A DNA stretch of 32,000 bases from an uncultured archaeon. GTDB taxonomy: Archaea > Asgardarchaeota > Lokiarchaeia > Sigyniarchaeales > Promethearchaeaceae. The notes under the pieces are model-generated. The model had not been told where the DNA came from and made no database searches. It saw nothing but the letters and a program-made list of their open reading frames with translations. This document shows positions 1 through 20,079 of the stretch, one piece after another. The stretch lies in contig CAYRPF010000006.1 in the NCBI GenBank assembly GCA_964426185.1, forward strand, positions 42,711 to 74,710, read 5' to 3'. Both the position numbers and the translations under genes were made by a program. Every line of letters starts with the position of its first letter. The stretch's first letter is position 1.

Positions 1-1995
1 TCTGGGTATTTAATTAATAAATATAATTTACCAAATGCTGCTTCTGCAAAAACAAGAGCTGATGATGTAATGAAACTATTGATCGATGAGCATGATTCTG
101 GAAATTACTTCATTTTCAAAAATAATGCCTTCGATTACAAGCGTAACTTTGATTTAAGCGCCTCTTCTTCAGTAATGGATTTAAAAACTAATGCTTATGG
201 GATTTTAGCTTTGCTAGAATGGTTTCTTGCCGATGAATTGGTTGAGAATAGCAATTATTTGAGAGTAGAGAAAGCAGAAGCTATTTTCAACAATTTCTAT
301 CATCACCTTTGGAGTAATTCATATTCTCTTTTTATGAATACAATGTGGAAACCGGGAGCCAATATAGTAGTGCTTGATGATACAATCGATGTGGTTGCAA
401 ATTCAATTATGTTACTTGCAGTAGAGCGATTATATCAAATTACTGGGAATTTTTCATACTTTGAAATTGCTATGAAAATGTTCAACGGTTTAGAAAAGAA
501 CATGCGCGATTCGGCTTATGGAACTTATTATACATCAGTAAATGCTACTTCTGGGCAATATAATGATATAAAATCCTTAAAAACTCATGCAAATATAATC
601 AATGCTTACAATGAACTAAATGATTTTGGTCAACAATCTTCATTAACCTTAGATTTAAATCAAACCGAGTTTATCAAGGGTGAGGCTAATCCATTAAATG
701 TATCTGCTGAATATTTCTTGGATTTTACTTTATCTTCTGGTGATTTCACAAAACAAAAAATCTATGATATATTTAATGCAACCTTTTCATTTGTATTTCG
801 TGCTCCAAATGGAACAATAATTGAATCCCAAGAAATCTCCGGAAATAATTCTGGTAAATGCTTTGTTCTTTTCAATTTCGAAGATAATATGGAATTTGGT
901 GAATATCATGTCTCTCTTCGAGTGAATTATACTGGAATTTCGACTCAGTTTGCGTCTAGTGTCTTCAACTTGCAACCTGGCATTGAAATCGTTAATTTAA
1001 CTTTACAATCTTCAAAAATTCGATGTGGTGAGAATTTTAATGTTTCATTCCAAATCGATTCAGAAAAAATTACCAATATAACGGCTGATATTCAAATTGA
1101 AGGCGATTGGATCAATAACCAAACGATTTTCAATCAATTAATTCAAGCTGAGACTTTAAATAATTATAGTTTCACAGTTATTGTTGATCAAGTTGCTGAA
1201 TTTGGTAATTCAAATATAATTATCAAAATTCTCAATAATTCTCTGGAGTACGCAGAATCCTCAATTGAATATATGATCTATAGTTCGATTGAAATCATTT
1301 CCGTTCAACAGGTTGCCACCGTATTTCGTGCACGAAATTTTACAACTATTGTATCAGTTGAAAATAAAATGGGGTTTGCGGAATCCATAATAATGGAATT
1401 ATCAGGAGACAATATATCACCGATAAATTTGAGCCTTAATTTAGCCGCTTATCAAATAGAAACTGTTGAACTAACCTCTTTTGTTCAATTAGATACCTCT
1501 CTTGGGGATTTATCCTATGATTTCCAAATTTCTCGAAAATCCGATAATTCAGAGATTAAAACATATTCGCTTTCATCGAAAGTTAAAAACCCATTGGAAT
1601 TTCTCTACATTACTCCCCCAGAGAAAGCATACCAGTGGCGTCAGAATAGCATTATATGTTCAATTCAAAATAACATGGATGACCCCCAAGGAATTCAAGT
1701 ATATCTTAATGATCAATTAGTTTCCTCACTCTCTTCAGTAGCACCTGGGGAAAATATTCTCAGTATTCCAATTTCTAAAACCTTGCGAAATCCTTATGAA
1801 CTTGGAATCAAATCGTTTAGAATTGAAATTTATGATAGTAATGGTTTGCTACTTTACCAAGATACCATTACTACTCAAGTTGAGCCTTCATTGGGGAGTA
1901 TCTTACTCGGATATGTTCTACCATTAGCAATTCCTATTATCGGAATTGTCATTGTAAAGCATATGGCTTTAGAAAATAAAAAAAGATTAATGTAA
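1..1995 (+). CDS. Large membrane-anchored surface glycoprotein, 5'-truncated: alpha/alpha-barrel (six-hairpin glycosidase-like) segment, then beta-rich Ig/CARDB-like domains and a C-terminal TM anchor
   Basis: Frame 1 is open from base 1 (SGYLINKYNLP...), so the ORF-track start at 70 is internal. Helical repeats (ANSIMLLAVERLYQITGNFSYFEIA...DSAYGTYY) resemble six-hairpin glycosidase-like proteins. Many N-x-S/T sequons. C-terminal hydrophobic helix ILLGYVLPLAIPIIGIVIV followed by basic tail NKKRLM. Confidence 0.7.
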   Translation, partial: SGYLINKYNLPNAASAKTRADDVMKLLIDEHDSGNYFIFKNNAFDYKRNFDLSASSSVMDLKTNAYGILALLEWFLADELVENSNYLRVEKAEAIFNNFYHHLWSNSYSLFMNTMWKPGANIVVLDDTIDVVANSIMLLAVERLYQITGNFSYFEIAMKMFNGLEKNMRDSAYGTYYTSVNATSGQYNDIKSLKTHANIINAYNELNDFGQQSSLTLDLNQTEFIKGEANPLNVSAEYFLDFTLSSGDFTKQKIYDIFNATFSFVFRAPNGTIIESQEISGNNSGKCFVLFNFEDNMEFGEYHVSLRVNYTGISTQFASSVFNLQPGIEIVNLTLQSSKIRCGENFNVSFQIDSEKITNITADIQIEGDWINNQTIFNQLIQAETLNNYSFTVIVDQVAEFGNSNIIIKILNNSLEYAESSIEYMIYSSIEIISVQQVATVFRARNFTTIVSVENKMGFAESIIMELSGDNISPINLSLNLAAYQIETVELTSFVQLDTSLGDLSYDFQISRKSDNSEIKTYSLSSKVKNPLEFLYITPPEKAYQWRQNSIICSIQNNMDDPQGIQVYLNDQLVSSLSSVAPGENILSIPISKTLRNPYELGIKSFRIEIYDSNGLLLYQDTITTQVEPSLGSILLGYVLPLAIPIIGIVIVKHMALENKKRLM

Positions 1996-2013
1996 ACTTA
2001 ACTATATAAAAAC

Positions 2014-3756
2014 GTGAAAAAAATGAATAGACAACAAAAATTATTGACATTATTTGTAAGCTTGGCAATTTGTGGGATAATTTTTCCAACATTAATTGGT
2101 GGTCATTCCTTTAATCCAAGTTATTCTCCATTAGCAGCAGCTGACGATGACATTTTCATAACTTCAGACGATGTTACTATTGATCGGACTACTATAAAAC
2201 GTGTTCTTCAATCGGTAAATATAACCTATAATAATTCTGGACCTCAATTGGATTCATCTGGATTTCAAGCCAACTTAACCTTTGTAGATGATTCTAGTCT
2301 TCTTTTATCCATGACAAACACCAGTAGTGCTCCTGATATTTGGTCTCTTGAATTTACACCCGATGCAGTAAATATAACTGGTGTTGTTCAAGTTTTTATC
2401 TTACCTACTGATGTAATTGGTGGTTTTACAAATGAAGTTCCTGATGCATCTTTCACAATTGAAAACAACTTACCTCATGTTTCAGTGCAAATGAATAAGA
2501 ATGAATACTATCGAAATGAAACTATTTCTCTCAATTTTTATCCATCTGATATTGAACAAGCCGTTGAAGAACTAAATTGGACCATTAGTTTATACCGTTC
2601 AGGATCTGGTTCTCCGATTGAAGTTTTTGTGGAAAATGCTTCGATATTTGAATATTCATATGTGATTTCAAATGATACTCAGTTAGGAACCTATTATATT
2701 AATGCCACTAGCTGGGATGCAGATGAACGTAACATTGATTTATACTATTTTGAAATTTTGAATAATATTCCTGTTATCGATGCTATTCAATTAGAAATCG
2801 ACGAAAGTTTATATGATGATGTAGAATCAACAGCAATCTCTGTTCTTCGAGGAGAAAATTTCATCTTACGCCTTAATGCAACAGATATAGATGGTAATTT
2901 CGAAAATTTCCGATTAACTATTACTGCAAATGATCCTTTATCTGGGGACGCTATTTTCTTTGGAGATTATAATGATATTTTACCGAATCTAACAGGAAAT
3001 TCTTGGTTATTTGAAAAAGATATTGTATTTCCTATTACCATAAATATTGGAATCACAGAGATGAATGTTGAATTACGTGAATATGCTTCCGATAATGAAA
3101 CATTATTGGATAAAACCAACCAAATTATAACATTTCAGCTCCAAAACAATGCTCCTGAAGTGAACCATGTATTCATAAATGGAATTTATGCAGAACCTTT
3201 ATCATTTACTGCTAGTGAGGTTTTAAATTTCACCTTTGATGTTGTAGATTCTGAAGATGAAAGTTTAATTGCTAAAAATCGTGAGAATCATAAAGAGATT
3301 TACGCCTATATTACTCTTATTTTCACTCATGATGCTTCAGGAATTCAAAAAGAATATACCATGCCATATCAATATGAAGAAAATGCTCTTTTCCAGTTAA
3401 ATACTTTCGAATTAGAAGCGGGAACGTGGTCAGTTCAAGTTATTCTTCAAGATACTGATGGATTAACCTCCGAGATTTCTGATCCTATTCTATTTGAAAT
3501 AGAATCAGCAAAAAGCGTCAATCCGATGATGTGGTTGATGTTCGCTATTGGAATTATTCTGGGTGGTGTGGTTATCTTTGCGGCAACCTATGCTACCTTG
3601 AAAATTAGAGTTATGCAGCAATCACGAATCTCCAGTAGTAATGAAGCGGAACTTCCTGAAGTAAGTGAAGAGAATGTTTCTCCAGCTGATAAAAACACAA
3701 AAGCCAAATCAAAGCCCGATACTAAAAAGGATAAGAAATTGGTTCGGAAGCTCTAA
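2014..3756 (+). CDS. Type I membrane surface glycoprotein with tandem Ig-like beta-sandwich domains
   Basis: N-terminal signal (KKMNRQQKLLTLFVSLAICGIIFPTLIG). Repeated linker motifs (TIENNLP, EILNNIP, QLQNNAP) with D-x-D/E motifs (PSDIE, ATDID, VVDSED). C-terminal TM (WLMFAIGIILGGVVIFAATYATL) and Lys-rich tail. Begins 18 bp after the upstream gene. Confidence 0.75.
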   Translation: MKKMNRQQKLLTLFVSLAICGIIFPTLIGGHSFNPSYSPLAAADDDIFITSDDVTIDRTTIKRVLQSVNITYNNSGPQLDSSGFQANLTFVDDSSLLLSMTNTSSAPDIWSLEFTPDAVNITGVVQVFILPTDVIGGFTNEVPDASFTIENNLPHVSVQMNKNEYYRNETISLNFYPSDIEQAVEELNWTISLYRSGSGSPIEVFVENASIFEYSYVISNDTQLGTYYINATSWDADERNIDLYYFEILNNIPVIDAIQLEIDESLYDDVESTAISVLRGENFILRLNATDIDGNFENFRLTITANDPLSGDAIFFGDYNDILPNLTGNSWLFEKDIVFPITINIGITEMNVELREYASDNETLLDKTNQIITFQLQNNAPEVNHVFINGIYAEPLSFTASEVLNFTFDVVDSEDESLIAKNRENHKEIYAYITLIFTHDASGIQKEYTMPYQYEENALFQLNTFELEAGTWSVQVILQDTDGLTSEISDPILFEIESAKSVNPMMWLMFAIGIILGGVVIFAATYATLKIRVMQQSRISSSNEAELPEVSEENVSPADKNTKAKSKPDTKKDKKLVRKL

Positions 3757-14563: not shown

Positions 14564-15835
14564 TTAACCCATTTCCGCTTCTGAAACAAGTTTAATGATT
14601 TTTTCGGTTTCTTTAGCGAGTTTCTTAGGTAAAGGACTGGTATCTACATCTAAAAATCCGCTTACAATTAAATTTATACTTTCACTTTCAGAAAGTCCGC
14701 GACTCATTAAATATTCAATATGATCATCTGCAATTTTTCCCACTGAGGCTTCATGTGTTAGGGTGACTTGTGGATTTCTTGCTTGGATTTCAGGAATAGA
14801 GTCTACTCGTGAATGATCCGAGAGAATAAGGGCAGAACAATCGATGTGACCTGTAACATCTTTACCATCTCCAATAATAGTTCCCCTCGCTTTCACATGA
14901 GCGCTATCGATTGCTAAAACACGAGAAATTAATTCTGCTTTAGAGCCTTCTCCGATTAAGTGCGCGGTGGCACCTGTATCAAAATAACTGTTTCCCTTAC
15001 CATAGATTAGTGTTTGACCGTAGTAAGAAGAATTTTTTCCAACAAGATTGATTACTGGATTAGTTTGCAAATTTCGTACTGCGGACATGACGATATAGAA
15101 ATTGGAAAACTCAGCATTGTCTTCTAATATTATTCCCGTACGGGGGCGAACATTGGTATCGTCTGCCCAATTATGCACCATTGTAAATGATACTCGCGCA
15201 TTTTTCTTCACATAAAATTCAGAAACGCCTAAATGTAAGGCTTTACGGGCGATTCTATGGGTTGAACAGCCAGTAATGATATCTAATTCTGAACCCTCCT
15301 CTGCAATAATAATGTTATGCACGACTTGTTTCATGCCTGGGAGGTTAACAAATAAACATGATTGCAATGGAAATACCGTTTTTCGGTCTTTTTTGGCGTA
15401 AATAAAATATCCTTGAGAAATCTCTTGAATCGCAGCTTCGGCAGTATATTGATCTTTATCGTATGGAACTGCTTTCCATAAATAGTCTTGCAAATTAAGT
15501 TTTCCATCTGTTCCATCATATTTTTTTAAAGCTTCTTTAATGGGGAGCAATTCTATTCCAGGAGTATTGCTAACACAGAGATCATACTTATTACCAGTTT
15601 GCAAATAGAGACCACTTTTTTTCTCATTAACGTCTATCCCAACTTTATCCATTGATTCCTTTAGATCTTCGGGAATTTCTTCTTCTGAATGCAAAGTTCC
15701 TTCAGGTTTTCCTTCATCTCCTAAAGTATAATCATTCAAGTTAATTCCATCGTTATTTTGTTGTTTGGCTCGTTCTAAAACCTTGTGCGCTTTATCCTTG
15801 ATTTGGTCTGGTGAATCTTTTGTTTTCATGTTCAT
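14564..15835 (-). CDS. sufB: Fe-S cluster assembly scaffold SufB/SufD family (SmsB-like)
   Basis: PLQSCLF, HNIIIAEEGSELDIITGC, HLGVSEFYV, MVHNW, GHIDCSAL, LTHEASVGKI, YLMSRGLSE, IVSGFL. Confidence 0.92.
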   Translation of the reverse strand: MNMKTKDSPDQIKDKAHKVLERAKQQNNDGINLNDYTLGDEGKPEGTLHSEEEIPEDLKESMDKVGIDVNEKKSGLYLQTGNKYDLCVSNTPGIELLPIKEALKKYDGTDGKLNLQDYLWKAVPYDKDQYTAEAAIQEISQGYFIYAKKDRKTVFPLQSCLFVNLPGMKQVVHNIIIAEEGSELDIITGCSTHRIARKALHLGVSEFYVKKNARVSFTMVHNWADDTNVRPRTGIILEDNAEFSNFYIVMSAVRNLQTNPVINLVGKNSSYYGQTLIYGKGNSYFDTGATAHLIGEGSKAELISRVLAIDSAHVKARGTIIGDGKDVTGHIDCSALILSDHSRVDSIPEIQARNPQVTLTHEASVGKIADDHIEYLMSRGLSESESINLIVSGFLDVDTSPLPKKLAKETEKIIKLVSEAEMG

Positions 15836-16647
15836 AGTGTAAAATCAACCTCTTTCAATAATGAAGAATTTTCCACGCAGCTAACACATTCACGACAAGC
15901 CTCAAACCCATTTTTCATAATAGAATTAATAATCAAAGCGGGATCTCCTGAACATGTTATTGTTCCATCCATCATTATATGGGCACGTGTGATATGGCCG
16001 AGAAATTTTAAAATATAACCTAAATGTGTAATGATTAAACCAGATTTACCTTGTTTCGATGGAATTTTATCACGATCGAGCAATTCTCTCATAATTTTTG
16101 CAATTAATTCAACGTTTTCCACATCTACACCTGAATCTGGTTCATCAAACAAGAGTAAATCTGGCTTTAAAACCATCATTTGGAGGATTTCTGAGCGTTT
16201 AACTTCACCTCCGCTAAATCCCAGATTTACATCTCGATTTATGTATTCTGGGGAAAATTTAAGCCTAGTTGCGAGTTGCTGTATGTCGGAAGATAATTCA
16301 TCGGTGCATTCTGTGTTATTTCCTCTTTTTTCGCTGCAAACCGTTAGTAATTTAGAAAGTTTAAGCCCATTAATCGCGGGAGGGTGTTGAAAAAGAACAC
16401 CGATCCCCATTTGGATTCGTTCATTTGTAGGTAAATTGGTTATATCTTTATCTTTAAAGAAGATGTGACCGTTAACCACCTTATAATTTTTAAATCCTAA
16501 AATAGTTTTTATCAAAGTTGTTTTTCCAGCTCCATTTGGTCCGAGTAAAACATGAACTTCTCCTTTTTCGATATTTAAATTAAAATCTTTTAAAATTAGT
16601 TTGCCTCTTACTTCAACGGCTAACTTTTCTATTCGCAACCACGACAT
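15832..16647 (-). CDS. sufC: Fe-S cluster assembly ABC ATPase SufC (SmsC-like)
   Basis: Walker A GPNGAGKT, RDVNLGFSGGEVKRSE, Walker B LLFDEPDSGVD, IITH. C-terminal CRECVSC. ATGA overlap with sufB. Confidence 0.93.
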   Translation of the reverse strand: MSWLRIEKLAVEVRGKLILKDFNLNIEKGEVHVLLGPNGAGKTTLIKTILGFKNYKVVNGHIFFKDKDITNLPTNERIQMGIGVLFQHPPAINGLKLSKLLTVCSEKRGNNTECTDELSSDIQQLATRLKFSPEYINRDVNLGFSGGEVKRSEILQMMVLKPDLLLFDEPDSGVDVENVELIAKIMRELLDRDKIPSKQGKSGLIITHLGYILKFLGHITRAHIMMDGTITCSGDPALIINSIMKNGFEACRECVSCVENSSLLKEVDFTL

Positions 16648-16886: not shown

Positions 16887-19490
16887 ATGGTTCAATCAAT
16901 ACCACCCAAAAATAACGACATTTTATTTTCATTGCAGAAAATATTCCCCCGACATGTAAAAAATGCAAGGGGATCACTGAAACCCTTTAATCCCGATAAA
17001 ATGGTTGAAAGCTTAAATAAAGAAACAGGATTAGATTGGAATGAATGCATCGAAGTGGTCAAAGATTCACTCAAAAGAATTACAATTTTAGGACTGGTTA
17101 CCATCCAAACTTCCATGATTCGTGAAATTATGTGTTTAGACTTGTTAGCTCGAGGCCATGAACGAGAGCGTAATATTTATGCCAAACTGATTAATCGGAG
17201 TGTCATCAAATTTCAGTTAGATCCTAAATTTATGGAAAAATACAAAGGAAAACAACCAGAGTGGGGTCCTTTAGGCTATATTACCTACAAACGGACTTAT
17301 GCACGTTATATTGTAGCTGAAAACCGCACCGAGGAATTCTATGAAACTGTTCAGCGTGTAGTCGAAGGTGTTTATAGCATTCAGAAAGAACATTGTTACA
17401 ATTTAGGTCTACCTTGGGATCCAGAAAAAGCTCAGAAATCTGCTCAGCGCATGTTTGAAAAGATATGGAATTTTCGATTTTTACCTCCAGGTCGAGGTTT
17501 ATGGATGATGGGTACCGAATTCATTGATAAACATGGTTCCATGGCTTTAAATAACTGCGGTTTTGTATCCACGGAAGATATTGTTATTAAAAAGACCAAA
17601 GCTTTCGAATGGTTGATGGATGCACTGATGCTGGGTGTGGGGGTAGGATTTGACACTAAGGGTGCTGGAAAACTCGTGATCCAAAATCCTAAGAATGAGA
17701 CATTTTTATTTGAGGTCCCAGATAGTCGAGAAGGTTGGGTTCAAGCCCTTAGACATTTATTAACCGCTTATTTTGAGGGTGAAGCAATGCCAATTTTCGA
17801 CTTTTCCAAAGTCCGTCCAGCTGGTACTCCTATCCGTGGATTCGGAGGTGTAGCTTCTGGACCTGAACCATTGAAGGAAATGCTGGATAGTCAAAAAGAA
17901 TTATTAGATAAACGTATTGGAAAAACTCTTTCATCTGTAGATATAGTAGATATGATGAATTTAATCGGAAAATGTGTGGTGGCTGGAAATGTGCGCAGAT
18001 CTGCAGAAATTGCCTTAGGAGAAATTGATGATGAAGAGTATATCAGTTGCAAACAGGATCAAAAAGCTTTATATCATCACCGATGGGCTTCTAACAACAG
18101 TATCATCGGCCGTAAGGGAATGAATTACGATAAAATTATTGATTCTATAGCAAAAAATGGAGAACCTGGAATTATTTGGTTGGAAAACTCACAAGCATTC
18201 AGTAGAATGGGAAGAGCTCCTGATTATAAAGATAAAAAAGCTGTTGGTGTGAACCCATGTGGAGAACAGACTTTGGAATCATTTGAACTTTGCTGCTTAG
18301 TTGAAACATTTCCTTCTTTGCATGAATCCTATGAAGAATTTGAAGAAACATTAAAATATGCCTATCTTTATGCAAAATCCGTAACCTTAGTTAATGTACA
18401 CTGGAATGAGACTAATGCGGTAATGGGAAAAAACAGAAGGATTGGAACCAGTCAAACTGGAATTATTGACGCATTCGCTCGTCATGGCCGTCGTACTATC
18501 TTGGAGTGGTCGGATAAGGGTTATCAATTTTTACGTAAATTGGATGAGCAATATTCAGATTTCTTCTGCGTGCCTCAATCGATCAAAATTACAACGGTAA
18601 AACCAAGTGGCACTGTTAGTTTACTGCCCGGTGTGGCACCTGGGATTCATTACCCTCATTCTGAGTACTATATCCGCCGTATTCGGATTTCTAAAGAGTC
18701 TACTTTGATAGACCTTTTAAGAGAAGCGAATTATCACATAGAACCCGATGCATATTCAGATAATAGTTTTGTTGTTGAATTTCCAATTCATGAGAAGAAT
18801 TTTCTTCGAGCAAAAAAGGATGTTTCAATTTGGGAGCAATTGGCTAATGCCATAGATTATCAACATTATTGGAGCGATAATCAAGTTTCTATTACCGTTA
18901 CATTCAAAAAAGAAGAAGTCAAAGATCTCAAATATGCCTTACAATTCGTGGAAGATAAAGTAAAAGGATTAAGCTTGCTTCCACTCACTGATTCGGGTTA
19001 TAAACAAATGCCATATGAGGAGATTACTAAAGAAGAATTTGAAAAGCGAGTTGCAAAAATAAAACCCATTAAAACATGGATTACTCATGAAAAGTCCGTT
19101 GGAACAATTTATTGCGATGGCGACAGCTGCCATCAAGTAGACGAAGCAGCAGTTCTCCGAGAAATGGAGAACCTTTTAAATGAACGAATTCCTGCGGTAG
19201 AAAATATTTCTTCCGAATCTTTTGGATTTAATGTAAAAAATGGAGTAATTCTTGAAGTTGGGCTCTACAATAAACACCTTAAAGCATTACCAAGTAATTT
19301 TTCTCATTTGGTTAATTTAAGGAGGTTAAATTTGAAAAATTGCGGATTAACTCGACTTCCGGATGGAATTGTCGAATTCCGTGATTTAGATTTTCTTGAT
19401 CTTACTGGTAATTCGTTTGCTTCATTAACACAAGAACAGCAACAATGGTTGGATAATTTACAAAGAAATGGTTGTAAAATACTCATGTAA
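16887..19490 (+). CDS. nrdJ: Class II (adenosylcobalamin-dependent) ribonucleoside-triphosphate reductase with N-terminal ATP-cone and C-terminal leucine-rich-repeat extension
   Basis: YKRTYAR, FLPPGRGLW, LNNCGF, VVAGNVRRSAEI, NPCGEQ (thiyl Cys), LCCLVE, NRRIG, TTVKPSGTVSLL, QVSITV, YCDGDSC tail. ATP-cone at the N-terminus and LxxLxLxxNxL repeats at the C-terminus. Strong SD AAGGAGG. Confidence 0.93.
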   Translation: MVQSIPPKNNDILFSLQKIFPRHVKNARGSLKPFNPDKMVESLNKETGLDWNECIEVVKDSLKRITILGLVTIQTSMIREIMCLDLLARGHERERNIYAKLINRSVIKFQLDPKFMEKYKGKQPEWGPLGYITYKRTYARYIVAENRTEEFYETVQRVVEGVYSIQKEHCYNLGLPWDPEKAQKSAQRMFEKIWNFRFLPPGRGLWMMGTEFIDKHGSMALNNCGFVSTEDIVIKKTKAFEWLMDALMLGVGVGFDTKGAGKLVIQNPKNETFLFEVPDSREGWVQALRHLLTAYFEGEAMPIFDFSKVRPAGTPIRGFGGVASGPEPLKEMLDSQKELLDKRIGKTLSSVDIVDMMNLIGKCVVAGNVRRSAEIALGEIDDEEYISCKQDQKALYHHRWASNNSIIGRKGMNYDKIIDSIAKNGEPGIIWLENSQAFSRMGRAPDYKDKKAVGVNPCGEQTLESFELCCLVETFPSLHESYEEFEETLKYAYLYAKSVTLVNVHWNETNAVMGKNRRIGTSQTGIIDAFARHGRRTILEWSDKGYQFLRKLDEQYSDFFCVPQSIKITTVKPSGTVSLLPGVAPGIHYPHSEYYIRRIRISKESTLIDLLREANYHIEPDAYSDNSFVVEFPIHEKNFLRAKKDVSIWEQLANAIDYQHYWSDNQVSITVTFKKEEVKDLKYALQFVEDKVKGLSLLPLTDSGYKQMPYEEITKEEFEKRVAKIKPIKTWITHEKSVGTIYCDGDSCHQVDEAAVLREMENLLNERIPAVENISSESFGFNVKNGVILEVGLYNKHLKALPSNFSHLVNLRRLNLKNCGLTRLPDGIVEFRDLDFLDLTGNSFASLTQEQQQWLDNLQRNGCKILM

Positions 19491-19506
19491 TAGATTTAAA
19501 TCTATT
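19489..19506. repeat. Perfect 18-bp palindrome at the nrdJ stop codon
   Basis: AATAGATTTAAATCTATT equals its own reverse complement and is followed by T-rich tracts (possible terminator). Confidence 0.6.
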
Positions 19507-19847
19507 GTTTTCATATTTTTTATTTATTAACACCATCATTTTTAAATGAGAGAAGGATGGAATCTGGGATTTTCTGAATTTAACATTTTTCTTTATCTTT
19601 GCTTTTTAATATGTAAGTTCACTGTTATTAATTAGAAGAAGCCGAGTGATTAATCCAGTATCCATAATCAACACTGATATCCCAGGAAAGTGATACCAAT
19701 TGATTAATAAAAACCGGACTAAAACTGGGAATTTGTTACCCCAATTACTCTCGTTTACTTCCTTAATTATTCATCACATATCTCACAAACAACCAAAATT
19801 AAAAGAAATCCCCAAATTTCAACCCCAAACCTAAAACCCCACAAAAT

Positions 19848-19890
19848 GCGTGTCAACGCGCCCCCCTCCCCTTTTAGGAGGGGGGTTAAC
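19848..19890. mobile_element. GC-rich hairpin resembling an IS200/IS605-family subterminal end (orphan remnant)
   Basis: CCCCCCTCC (19861-19869) pairs with GGAGGGGGG (19877-19885) around a CCTTTTA loop, flanked by GTCAAC and GTTAAC. No transposase ORF nearby. Confidence 0.4.
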
Positions 19891-20079
19891 TACTTTTCTG
19901 AGATTATTTTCATTTATCTTATTCCATCCTTTGTGTGCTCATTAAAATAAAAATATAGTAAAATATTATTACAAATTTAATGACAACTTTAAGTTAACTT
20001 TAAATATGAATGATGCTTTATATAGATTAGAGAAATAATTTGCCAATTATAGATAAAAAATTGAAACAGGTGAAATATA

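Follow-up and report, generated by a model that had tools for sequence, protein, structure and literature searches.

A class II ribonucleotide reductase with a predicted leucine-rich-repeat domain after its redox cysteines in a small clade of Asgard archaea

Ribonucleotide reductases (RNRs) are among the best-studied enzymes. The closest structurally described relative of the enzyme considered here is the ribonucleoside-triphosphate reductase (RTPR) of Lactobacillus leichmannii (Protein Data Bank (PDB) entry 1L1L), a chain of 739 amino acids (aa) with a C-x4-C shuttle pair near the end of its core. Class II RNRs diversify chiefly at the C-terminus (PMC9669993), and folded C-terminal domains that lie beside, or contain, the redox cysteines mediate turnover and oligomerisation (PMC5704485). 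Leucine-rich repeats (LRRs) are unmentioned in the systematic survey of class II C-terminal extensions (PMC9669993). LRR solenoids are enriched in Asgard proteomes, where almost all of them are of unknown function (2026 preprint 10.64898/2026.10.28.762692). Here, a stretch of 32,000 nucleotides from an archaeon of the genus Harpocratesius (assembly GCA_964426185.1, contig CAYRPF010000006.1, positions 42,711 to 74,710; hereafter the window) is described, in which the gene for an RTPR-type RNR, P0001, continues in frame past its redox cysteines into a predicted LRR domain. Full-text searches for literature on RNRs with LRRs, Asgard archaea, L. ossiferum or NrdJ domain fusions returned no description of an NrdJ-LRR fusion, in agreement with the initial annotation of this DNA, which knew of none. 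The fusion is thus undescribed in the literature searched, although its sequences are already public, labelled by the NCBI pipeline only as 'fused protease/ribonucleoside-triphosphate reductase'.

The reductase and its redox arm

The gene is a single unbroken open reading frame (ORF) of 867 codons (867 aa) on the plus strand, running from an ATG at 16887 to a TAA at 19488-19490. Its parts, with the evidence that delimits them, are listed in window coordinates.

16887..19490, + strand: whole gene P0001, comprising an ATP-cone, an RTPR-type class II RNR and a C-terminal mini-LRR (ORF list, translation)
16953..17186, + strand: divergent ATP-cone domain, residues ~23-100 (PF03477, N-termini of orthologues, topology of the AlphaFold2 (AF2) model)
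17214..19061, + strand: RTPR catalytic core, residues ~110-725, including the loop-1 insertion domain (phmmer and Foldseek matches to 1L1L, Pfam)
19062..19142, + strand: flexible redox arm, residues 726-752, with C743-x4-C748 (sequence, low pLDDT)
19143..19487, + strand: predicted capped mini-LRR domain, residues 753-867 (AF2, Foldseek, phmmer, pattern conserved in 10 orthologous tails)
within the mini-LRR: N-cap helix, residues 753-764; FGF beta-hairpin into repeat 1, 779-801; repeat 2, 811-833; repeat 3, 834-848
within the mini-LRR: C-cap helix, residues 849-860; terminal strand, 864-866

The enzyme had initially been annotated as a B12-dependent RNR of the RTPR type, and both sequence and fold bear this out. 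P0001 scores 419.6 bits against the RTPR equivalog model TIGR02505, above the curated cut-off of 340.05, and just 62 bits against the dimeric NrdJ model TIGR02504 (cut-off 400). Pfam RNR_Alpha is matched at residues 111-210 (111.3 bits), and the loop-1 insertion domain (PF21995, RNR-II_ins_dom) at residues 269-336 (60.6 bits against a cut-off of 27). This insertion domain replaces, or mimics, the dimer interface and is the basis of the monomeric state, which is here predicted. Among PDB sequences, the best match is 1L1L (phmmer, E 6.4e-116), with residues 110-725 aligned to residues 6-705 of the chain and 32% identity over about 719 aligned columns. It is also the top Foldseek match of the full-length AF2 model (pLDDT 78; 1L1L_A, E 1.7e-41, TMt 0.72), whose fold is closer to 1L1L than to the dimeric NrdJ of T. 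maritima (TMt 0.72 versus ~0.5). P0001 has in common with the L. leichmannii enzyme the loop-1 insertion domain, the NPCGE loop, the two active-site cysteines and, towards the end of the core, the C-x4-C shuttle pair. C224 (in NNCGF), the thiyl-radical C458 together with E460 (N456-P-C458-G-E460) and C469 (in ELCC) align with their counterparts in 1L1L, and these motif residues are invariant across 82 orthologues. P0001 is the sole RTPR in a genome that is 92% complete, and thioredoxin genes are present in the same genome. Together, these matches identify P0001 as a monomeric, RTPR-type, adenosylcobalamin (AdoCbl)-dependent class II RNR with its catalytic residues and redox tail in place, and working catalysis, that is AdoCbl-dependent reduction of ribonucleoside triphosphates, would be expected from homology.

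A 778-aa ORF elsewhere in this genome (locus L011 on contig C15 of genome G000, 928-3264, + strand) combines an N-terminal winged-helix/DUF7347 region with a partial match to class III RNR (PF13597, 33 bits, profile positions 281-402), and its product could be a glycyl-radical enzyme of divergent, NrdD-like type, or else a second RNR. That ORF aside, no RNR other than the LRR-bearing RTPR was detected in the genome of the window. Several Asgard orthologues (P0012, P0015, P0020 and P0105; 1226-1404 aa) are interrupted by inteins, recognized by Pfam intein-splicing, HNH or LAGLIDADG domains, and none is found in the window copy.

The N-terminus is best read as a divergent ATP-cone for which nucleotide binding is only predicted. 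PF03477 matches residues 23-90 of P0001 at E 0.027 and 15.4 bits, under the gathering score of 25.8, and a search of the ATP-cone profile against PDB sequences matched no ATP-cone chain. The assignment draws instead on predicted topology and on related enzymes: PF03477 is matched at E <= 10 (best 7.4e-9) by each of the 14 orthologous N-termini that were aligned, and the first ~100 residues of P0001 are 38-44% identical to the PF03477-positive N-termini of Asgard orthologues of ~745 aa. In the AF2 model this region has a predicted topology that fits a cone, with a beta-hairpin (strands 23-25 and 31-33) followed by four helices (36-99; pLDDT 73-90), and the KRDG-type motif of the cone reads NARG in P0001. 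Such a domain is lacking in the L. leichmannii chain, whose residue 6 aligns with residue 110 of P0001. Most of the ~745-aa Asgard orthologues listed carry PF03477, and the cone is thus ordinary among Asgard RTPRs. In class II enzymes generally, ATP-cones are considered to be kept for a 'cryptic function', their classical regulatory role being doubted (PMC9669993). The ATP-cone singled out in the initial annotation is accordingly present as an ATP-cone-type domain, and is nothing special to this protein.

The shuttle cysteines were read directly from the sequence. C743 and C748 are encoded by TGC codons at 19113-19115 and 19128-19130, so that the pair spans 19113-19130; among the 82 orthologues C743 is invariant and C748 almost so. 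Upstream of the pair the arm contains no insertions or deletions relative to tail-less orthologues, and residues 736-751 have pLDDT below 50 in the full-length model. Beyond C748 the chain runs on for exactly 119 residues, among them the LRR string quoted in the initial annotation, whose placement of the pair and of about 119 in-frame residues with LRRs is upheld by the sequence reading, the PDB matches and the fold. The LRR begins 4-5 residues past C748, which places the cysteine pair in a disordered loop between barrel and LRR, and not on a free C-terminal end as in the class II prototype. The alignment with the L. leichmannii chain stops at residue 705 of 739, leaving a short tail there, whereas P0001 has a folded LRR of 115 aa predicted after the pair.

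A stop codon or a misassembly just after the cysteine pair had been named as what would undo this description. No stop is present, and neither a homopolymer nor a repeat is found at the junction. The same in-frame junction occurs in the closed chromosomes CP104013.1 and JAIZWK010000001.1 and in NCBI, ENA, JGI and Logan assemblies of different samples, and its recurrence in independent assemblies of related genomes excludes misassembly.

The leucine-rich-repeat tail and its relatives

The tail is predicted to be a genuine folded, capped mini-LRR of about three repeats. Modelled alone by AF2, it forms five strands and cap helices with high confidence (pLDDT 92.6, pTM 0.85), and within the full-length model its pLDDT is 78-91. 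The best Foldseek match is the LRR of the Chlorobium tepidum Roco protein (CtRoco; 5IL7, E 1.8e-4, TMq 0.69), aligned over the whole tail, with further matches to Leptospira LIC proteins, SHOC2 and repebodies, all, like CtRoco, at probability 1.00. By sequence, residues 788-861 match PDB chains of Leptospira LIC12759 (phmmer, E 5.5e-14) and SHOC2 (about 3e-9). A profile of the tail searched against 1.84 billion representative sequences retrieved 138,314 LRR proteins at E <= 1e-3 and 54,620 at E <= 1e-10; these matches are headed by giant multi-repeat proteins, and they support the LRR identity while being silent on other enzymes that might carry a mini-module. Pfam LRR matches on P0001 itself fall under threshold (LRR_8, 20.1 of 27 bits; LRR_14, 19.1 of 40) because there are just about three repeats. 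PF23598 (LRR_14) is precomputed in orthologues P0003 and P0007-P0010, and the LRR pattern is kept in all 10 orthologous tails. No cysteine of the LRR is conserved, the one in the C-cap occurring only in P0001-P0003, so the domain cannot relay electrons itself.

Repeats of 22-24 residues ending in LP (LxxLxLxxN/CxLxxLP) are shared with the CtRoco LRR (5IL7/6HLU) and the Leptospira LIC LRRs. Those domains, however, span about 190 to more than 400 residues and occur in Roc-COR GTPases or in stand-alone or secreted proteins, whereas P0001 has about three repeats on a metabolic enzyme. As a folded C-terminal accessory next to, or containing, redox cysteines, the tail also resembles the cysteine-rich, zinc-finger CRD of NrdJd and the IscU-like domains found in long class II C-termini (PMC5704485; PMC9669993), but the alpha/beta solenoid fold of an LRR and its chemistry are unrelated to theirs. 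The nearest non-RNR relative by sequence, in the last protein search (region 690-867), is an LRR-Roc-COR protein, P0278.

Counterparts are also found at home. Within the same genome, the tail has its closest paralogue in L002, whose cytosolic C-terminal mini-LRR is 36% identical to it over 106 residues and has the same caps and the same three-repeat size. L002 (contig C21 of G000, 937-1824, + strand) is a protein of 295 aa in which several membrane helices are predicted, and which also has a CxxC...CxxC zinc ribbon besides this three-repeat capped LRR at its C-terminus. A second protein, L003 (ORF 898-1845), consists of 315 aa of LRR throughout, with caps like those of the RNR tail. Both share with the tail an N-cap made of an acidic helix, IP and an FG(F/V) strand, and a C-cap made of a helix and a GC-hydrophobic strand, and differ from the RNR in their unrelated N-terminal parts. 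Long LRR proteins of other Lokiarchaeia begin with the same N-cap. These likenesses mark the tail as an LRR of local Asgard type by its sequence, and it was likely derived from a local LRR gene. The 'eukaryote-like' character first attributed to the module does not hold specifically, since its caps and repeats match Asgard LRR proteins of its own and related genomes and Foldseek ranks a bacterial Roco LRR first. Among 14 genomes of the family, the L002 family occurs only in Harpocratesius, Lokiarchaeum and Promethearchaeum. Co-distribution of this membrane protein with the RNR tail was considered and found imperfect, as Promethearchaeum encodes the protein but no RNR tail.

The tail is constrained. 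Even between the closest orthologues, P0001 and P0002, synonymous sites have reached saturation, so that a proper dN/dS could not be computed and the proportions of nonsynonymous (pN) and synonymous (pS) differences were compared instead. With pS at 0.771, pN rises from 0.041 in the core to 0.196 in the tail, giving a pN/pS of about 0.25 for the tail, which is thus under purifying selection about five times less than the core. Neither stops nor frameshifts occur in the tail in the 10 clusters.

Distribution, origin and genomic setting

The homologues belong to Promethearchaeota (Asgard archaea, Lokiarchaeia). The tail is found in ten clusters at 90% identity (P0001-P0010), drawn from NCBI, ENA, JGI and Logan assemblies, P0002-P0010 being 74-90% identical to P0001 over the full length. 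At the level of species, it is complete in 5 of 121 genomes of the order (G000, G001, G008, G014 and G030), from two genera of one family; the copy in G001 is a fragment at a contig end. The other 116 genomes lack an LRR tail, and their proteins end soon after the cysteine pair. The fusion is therefore not widespread, nor characterized in the literature found, which had been the other ground for setting aside its novelty. Carriers with closed genomes are Candidatus Harpocratesius repetitus FW102 (G008, of the same genus as the window) and the cultured Candidatus Lokiarchaeum ossiferum B35 (G030, CP104013.1), whose ORF is 100% identical to P0010. In Promethearchaeum syntrophicum MK-D1 (G020), the enzyme, P0011, has no LRR tail. 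It is one of the Asgard ATP-cone RTPRs of ~745-763 aa, which are orthologous to P0001 (64-79% identity) and share with it the ATP-cone, core, cysteine pair and upstream sufC-sufBD genes, but end 2-15 residues past the pair. Word-based protein searches, with the tail among longer proteins and with region 690-867, retrieved no further RNR-LRR fusions; these searches are insensitive and missed even P0008-P0010.

A maximum-likelihood tree was built on the core only, with tails stripped. In this tree, tail-less proteins are nested within the tail-bearing group: P0009, with the LRR, is sister to P0011 of MK-D1, without it (support 100/99), and the tail-less P0016 is adjacent. Three changes are needed to explain presence and absence of the tail, at least two of which are forced by well-supported branches. 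The tails are collinear throughout, from the junction to the C-cap, which makes a single gain followed by losses far likelier than repeated gains. On this evidence, it is far more likely that the fusion was gained once, in an ancestor of the Harpocratesius/Lokiarchaeum/Promethearchaeum group, and then lost, and P. syntrophicum MK-D1 probably lost its tail secondarily. In the MK-D1 group, a stub of 12 residues remains after the cysteine pair and is similar to the opening turns of P0009's N-cap helix; it reads QIISETELIKED in P0012, where the tail of P0009 starts QIISEADFIKEL. A tblastn match in MK-D1 to query residues 1-56 was examined as a remnant of the LRR and ruled out, being read-through into the next gene. 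Fusion with a downstream gene was ruled out as the origin of the tail, as the next gene in MK-D1, 12 nt downstream, encodes a tRNA_bind protein and no LRR gene lies nearby. In another genus of the family, P0083 (810 aa) and open frames in G005 and G011 (805 and 797 aa) have a different extension after the cysteines, non-LRR, charged and apparently helical, which suggests that the C-terminus of Asgard RTPRs was extended more than once.

Directly upstream of the RNR lies a divergent sufC-sufBD pair for Fe-S assembly (window 14564-16647, - strand), which is conserved in Harpocratesius, Lokiarchaeum and Promethearchaeum (L007, L008, L010). These are the only conserved neighbours, and their synteny is independent of the LRR. 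As a clue to a partner of the LRR the pair was rejected, because it is also found beside tail-less RNRs. Further upstream, past the suf genes, Harpocratesius and Promethearchaeum share conserved genes for a DUF655 protein, an rRNA adenine dimethylase and a methyltransferase. On the other side, the RNR stop is separated from clpB by an unusually long AT-rich spacer of 590 bp (19491-20079) with C-rich tracts. It holds a hairpin at 19861-19885 with a perfect 9-bp all-G/C stem (CCCCCCTCC, a 7-nt loop, GGAGGGGGG) and no ORF of 50 aa or more, and an Rfam scan of the window matched no family; in the equivalent spacer of the closest relative (L010), a 73-aa ORF is called on the minus strand. In L. ossiferum, 2.4 kb downstream of the RNR-LRR gene, a 360-aa small GTPase of Arf/Ras/Roc type is encoded (L008, 10910-11992, + strand), with none at the corresponding place in the window. 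Its proximity is possibly a coincidence, yet it bears on the idea that the LRR binds a GTPase.

What the tail may do

In the scheme judged likeliest, the 3' end of an ancestral gene would have been extended by a minimal capped LRR, directly beyond the redox arm. The shuttle pair would have to reach into the active site and be re-reduced outside it afterwards, and from this we infer that the LRR travels with the arm and sits at the mouth of the barrel while the active site is re-reduced. The concave face of the LRR would bind an external protein and keep that protein beside the redox arm. The chances that the LRR is such a docking site appear to us evenly balanced. The initial annotation had suggested reductant recruitment, regulation, localization, or service as a sensor or decoy for viral proteins as possible roles of the module. 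As for the docked protein, a disulfide reductant, that is a thioredoxin-like protein, is the leading and still tentative guess; a regulator, or a scaffold positioning the enzyme, has about the same chance. In the Harpocratesius-like group, conservation at the solvent-exposed x positions of the concave face comes close to that of the buried consensus (0.58 versus 0.42 bits), and convex and loop positions are much more variable (1.32 bits), the pattern expected of a putative ligand-binding face. The tails are slightly acidic in net charge, which argues against nucleic-acid binding.

Several points weigh against docking. The four more distant tails show no contrast between concave and convex positions (1.18 versus 1.08 bits), beta-strand positions tend to stay conserved for structural reasons anyway, and substitutions accumulate about five times faster in the tail than in the core. 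No partner was identified from conserved neighbours or co-distribution, and downstream of the gene no neighbour is common to Harpocratesius (clpB) and Lokiarchaeum (a 248-aa ORF, a NosD-like protein and an Arf/Roc GTPase). P. syntrophicum and at least one further lineage have lost the domain without other visible change, so that its function, whatever it is, is dispensable; loss in even one lineage makes the module accessory, not essential. Finally, the C-terminus is the easiest site for a fusion, and the closeness of the LRR to the cysteine pair may be incidental.

Alternatively, the LRR might act by self-association, driving dimers or oligomers of a normally monomeric RTPR and thereby permitting electron transfer between subunits, or providing an oligomeric state for the ATP-cone, as the CRD does in NrdJd. 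There is precedent in a class II enzyme whose C-terminal CRD drives dATP/dGTP-induced oligomers and in which electrons can cross subunits (Loderer et al. 2017, PMC5704485), and a monomer has no obvious use for the cones that class II enzymes retain for a 'cryptic function' (PMC9669993). However, Asgard RTPRs with an ATP-cone and without an LRR are the rule, and the cone thus does not need the LRR. Self-association is considered unlikely.

In Roco and NLR proteins, the LRRs are folded back onto the catalytic domains. By the same logic, known also from LRRK2, the tail could be an intramolecular lid or sensor, folding onto the barrel or the cone and gating substrate, cofactor or redox arm until a ligand, such as a small GTPase or a viral protein, releases it. 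Both the best structural match, a Roco LRR, and the nearest non-RNR relative, P0278, are in keeping with this, as is the geometry of the junction, by which an LRR 4-5 residues past C748 would lie at the mouth of the active site each time the pair enters it. Against it, no compensating change is visible in the core of enzymes that have lost the tail. Moreover, the concave residues differ between genera in which the core surface is 81-94% identical, a pattern better fitted by an external partner that co-evolves with the tail than by the conserved core of the enzyme itself. A lid of this kind is judged quite unlikely. In its boldest form, in which the LRR is a ligand-controlled lid or receptor at the active-site mouth, answering to an Asgard small GTPase or a viral protein and so making synthesis of deoxyribonucleoside triphosphates respond to a protein signal, the proposal is improbable. 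If it were true, protein-protein signalling, and not nucleotides alone, would switch an enzyme of core metabolism in the prokaryotes most closely related to eukaryotes.

That the tail is a neutral or decaying passenger from a chance 3' fusion, with no present function, would suit its restriction to a few genera (5 of 121 genomes), its loss at least once and probably two or three times, and its faster evolution. It is very improbable all the same, as the tail is intact in the 10 clusters despite saturated synonymous sites, its pN/pS is about 0.25, its model is confident, and the LRR consensus and caps, and within the genus the concave face too, are conserved. The weakest alternative, an assembly or annotation artefact arising from a missed stop, a chimeric contig or two merged genes, has nothing in its favour beyond the origin of the window in a draft genome of 155 contigs, and is effectively refuted by the clean in-frame junction in closed chromosomes and in assemblies from different samples.

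The fusion concerns a small clade and a dispensable domain, and the role proposed for the LRR is inferred. Nevertheless, the cultured pair of L. ossiferum B35, with the fusion, and P. syntrophicum MK-D1, without it, constitutes a natural plus/minus comparison. An Asgard LRR is here tied to an enzyme whose reaction and mobile redox arm are both known, which provides a handle on what Asgard LRRs bind.

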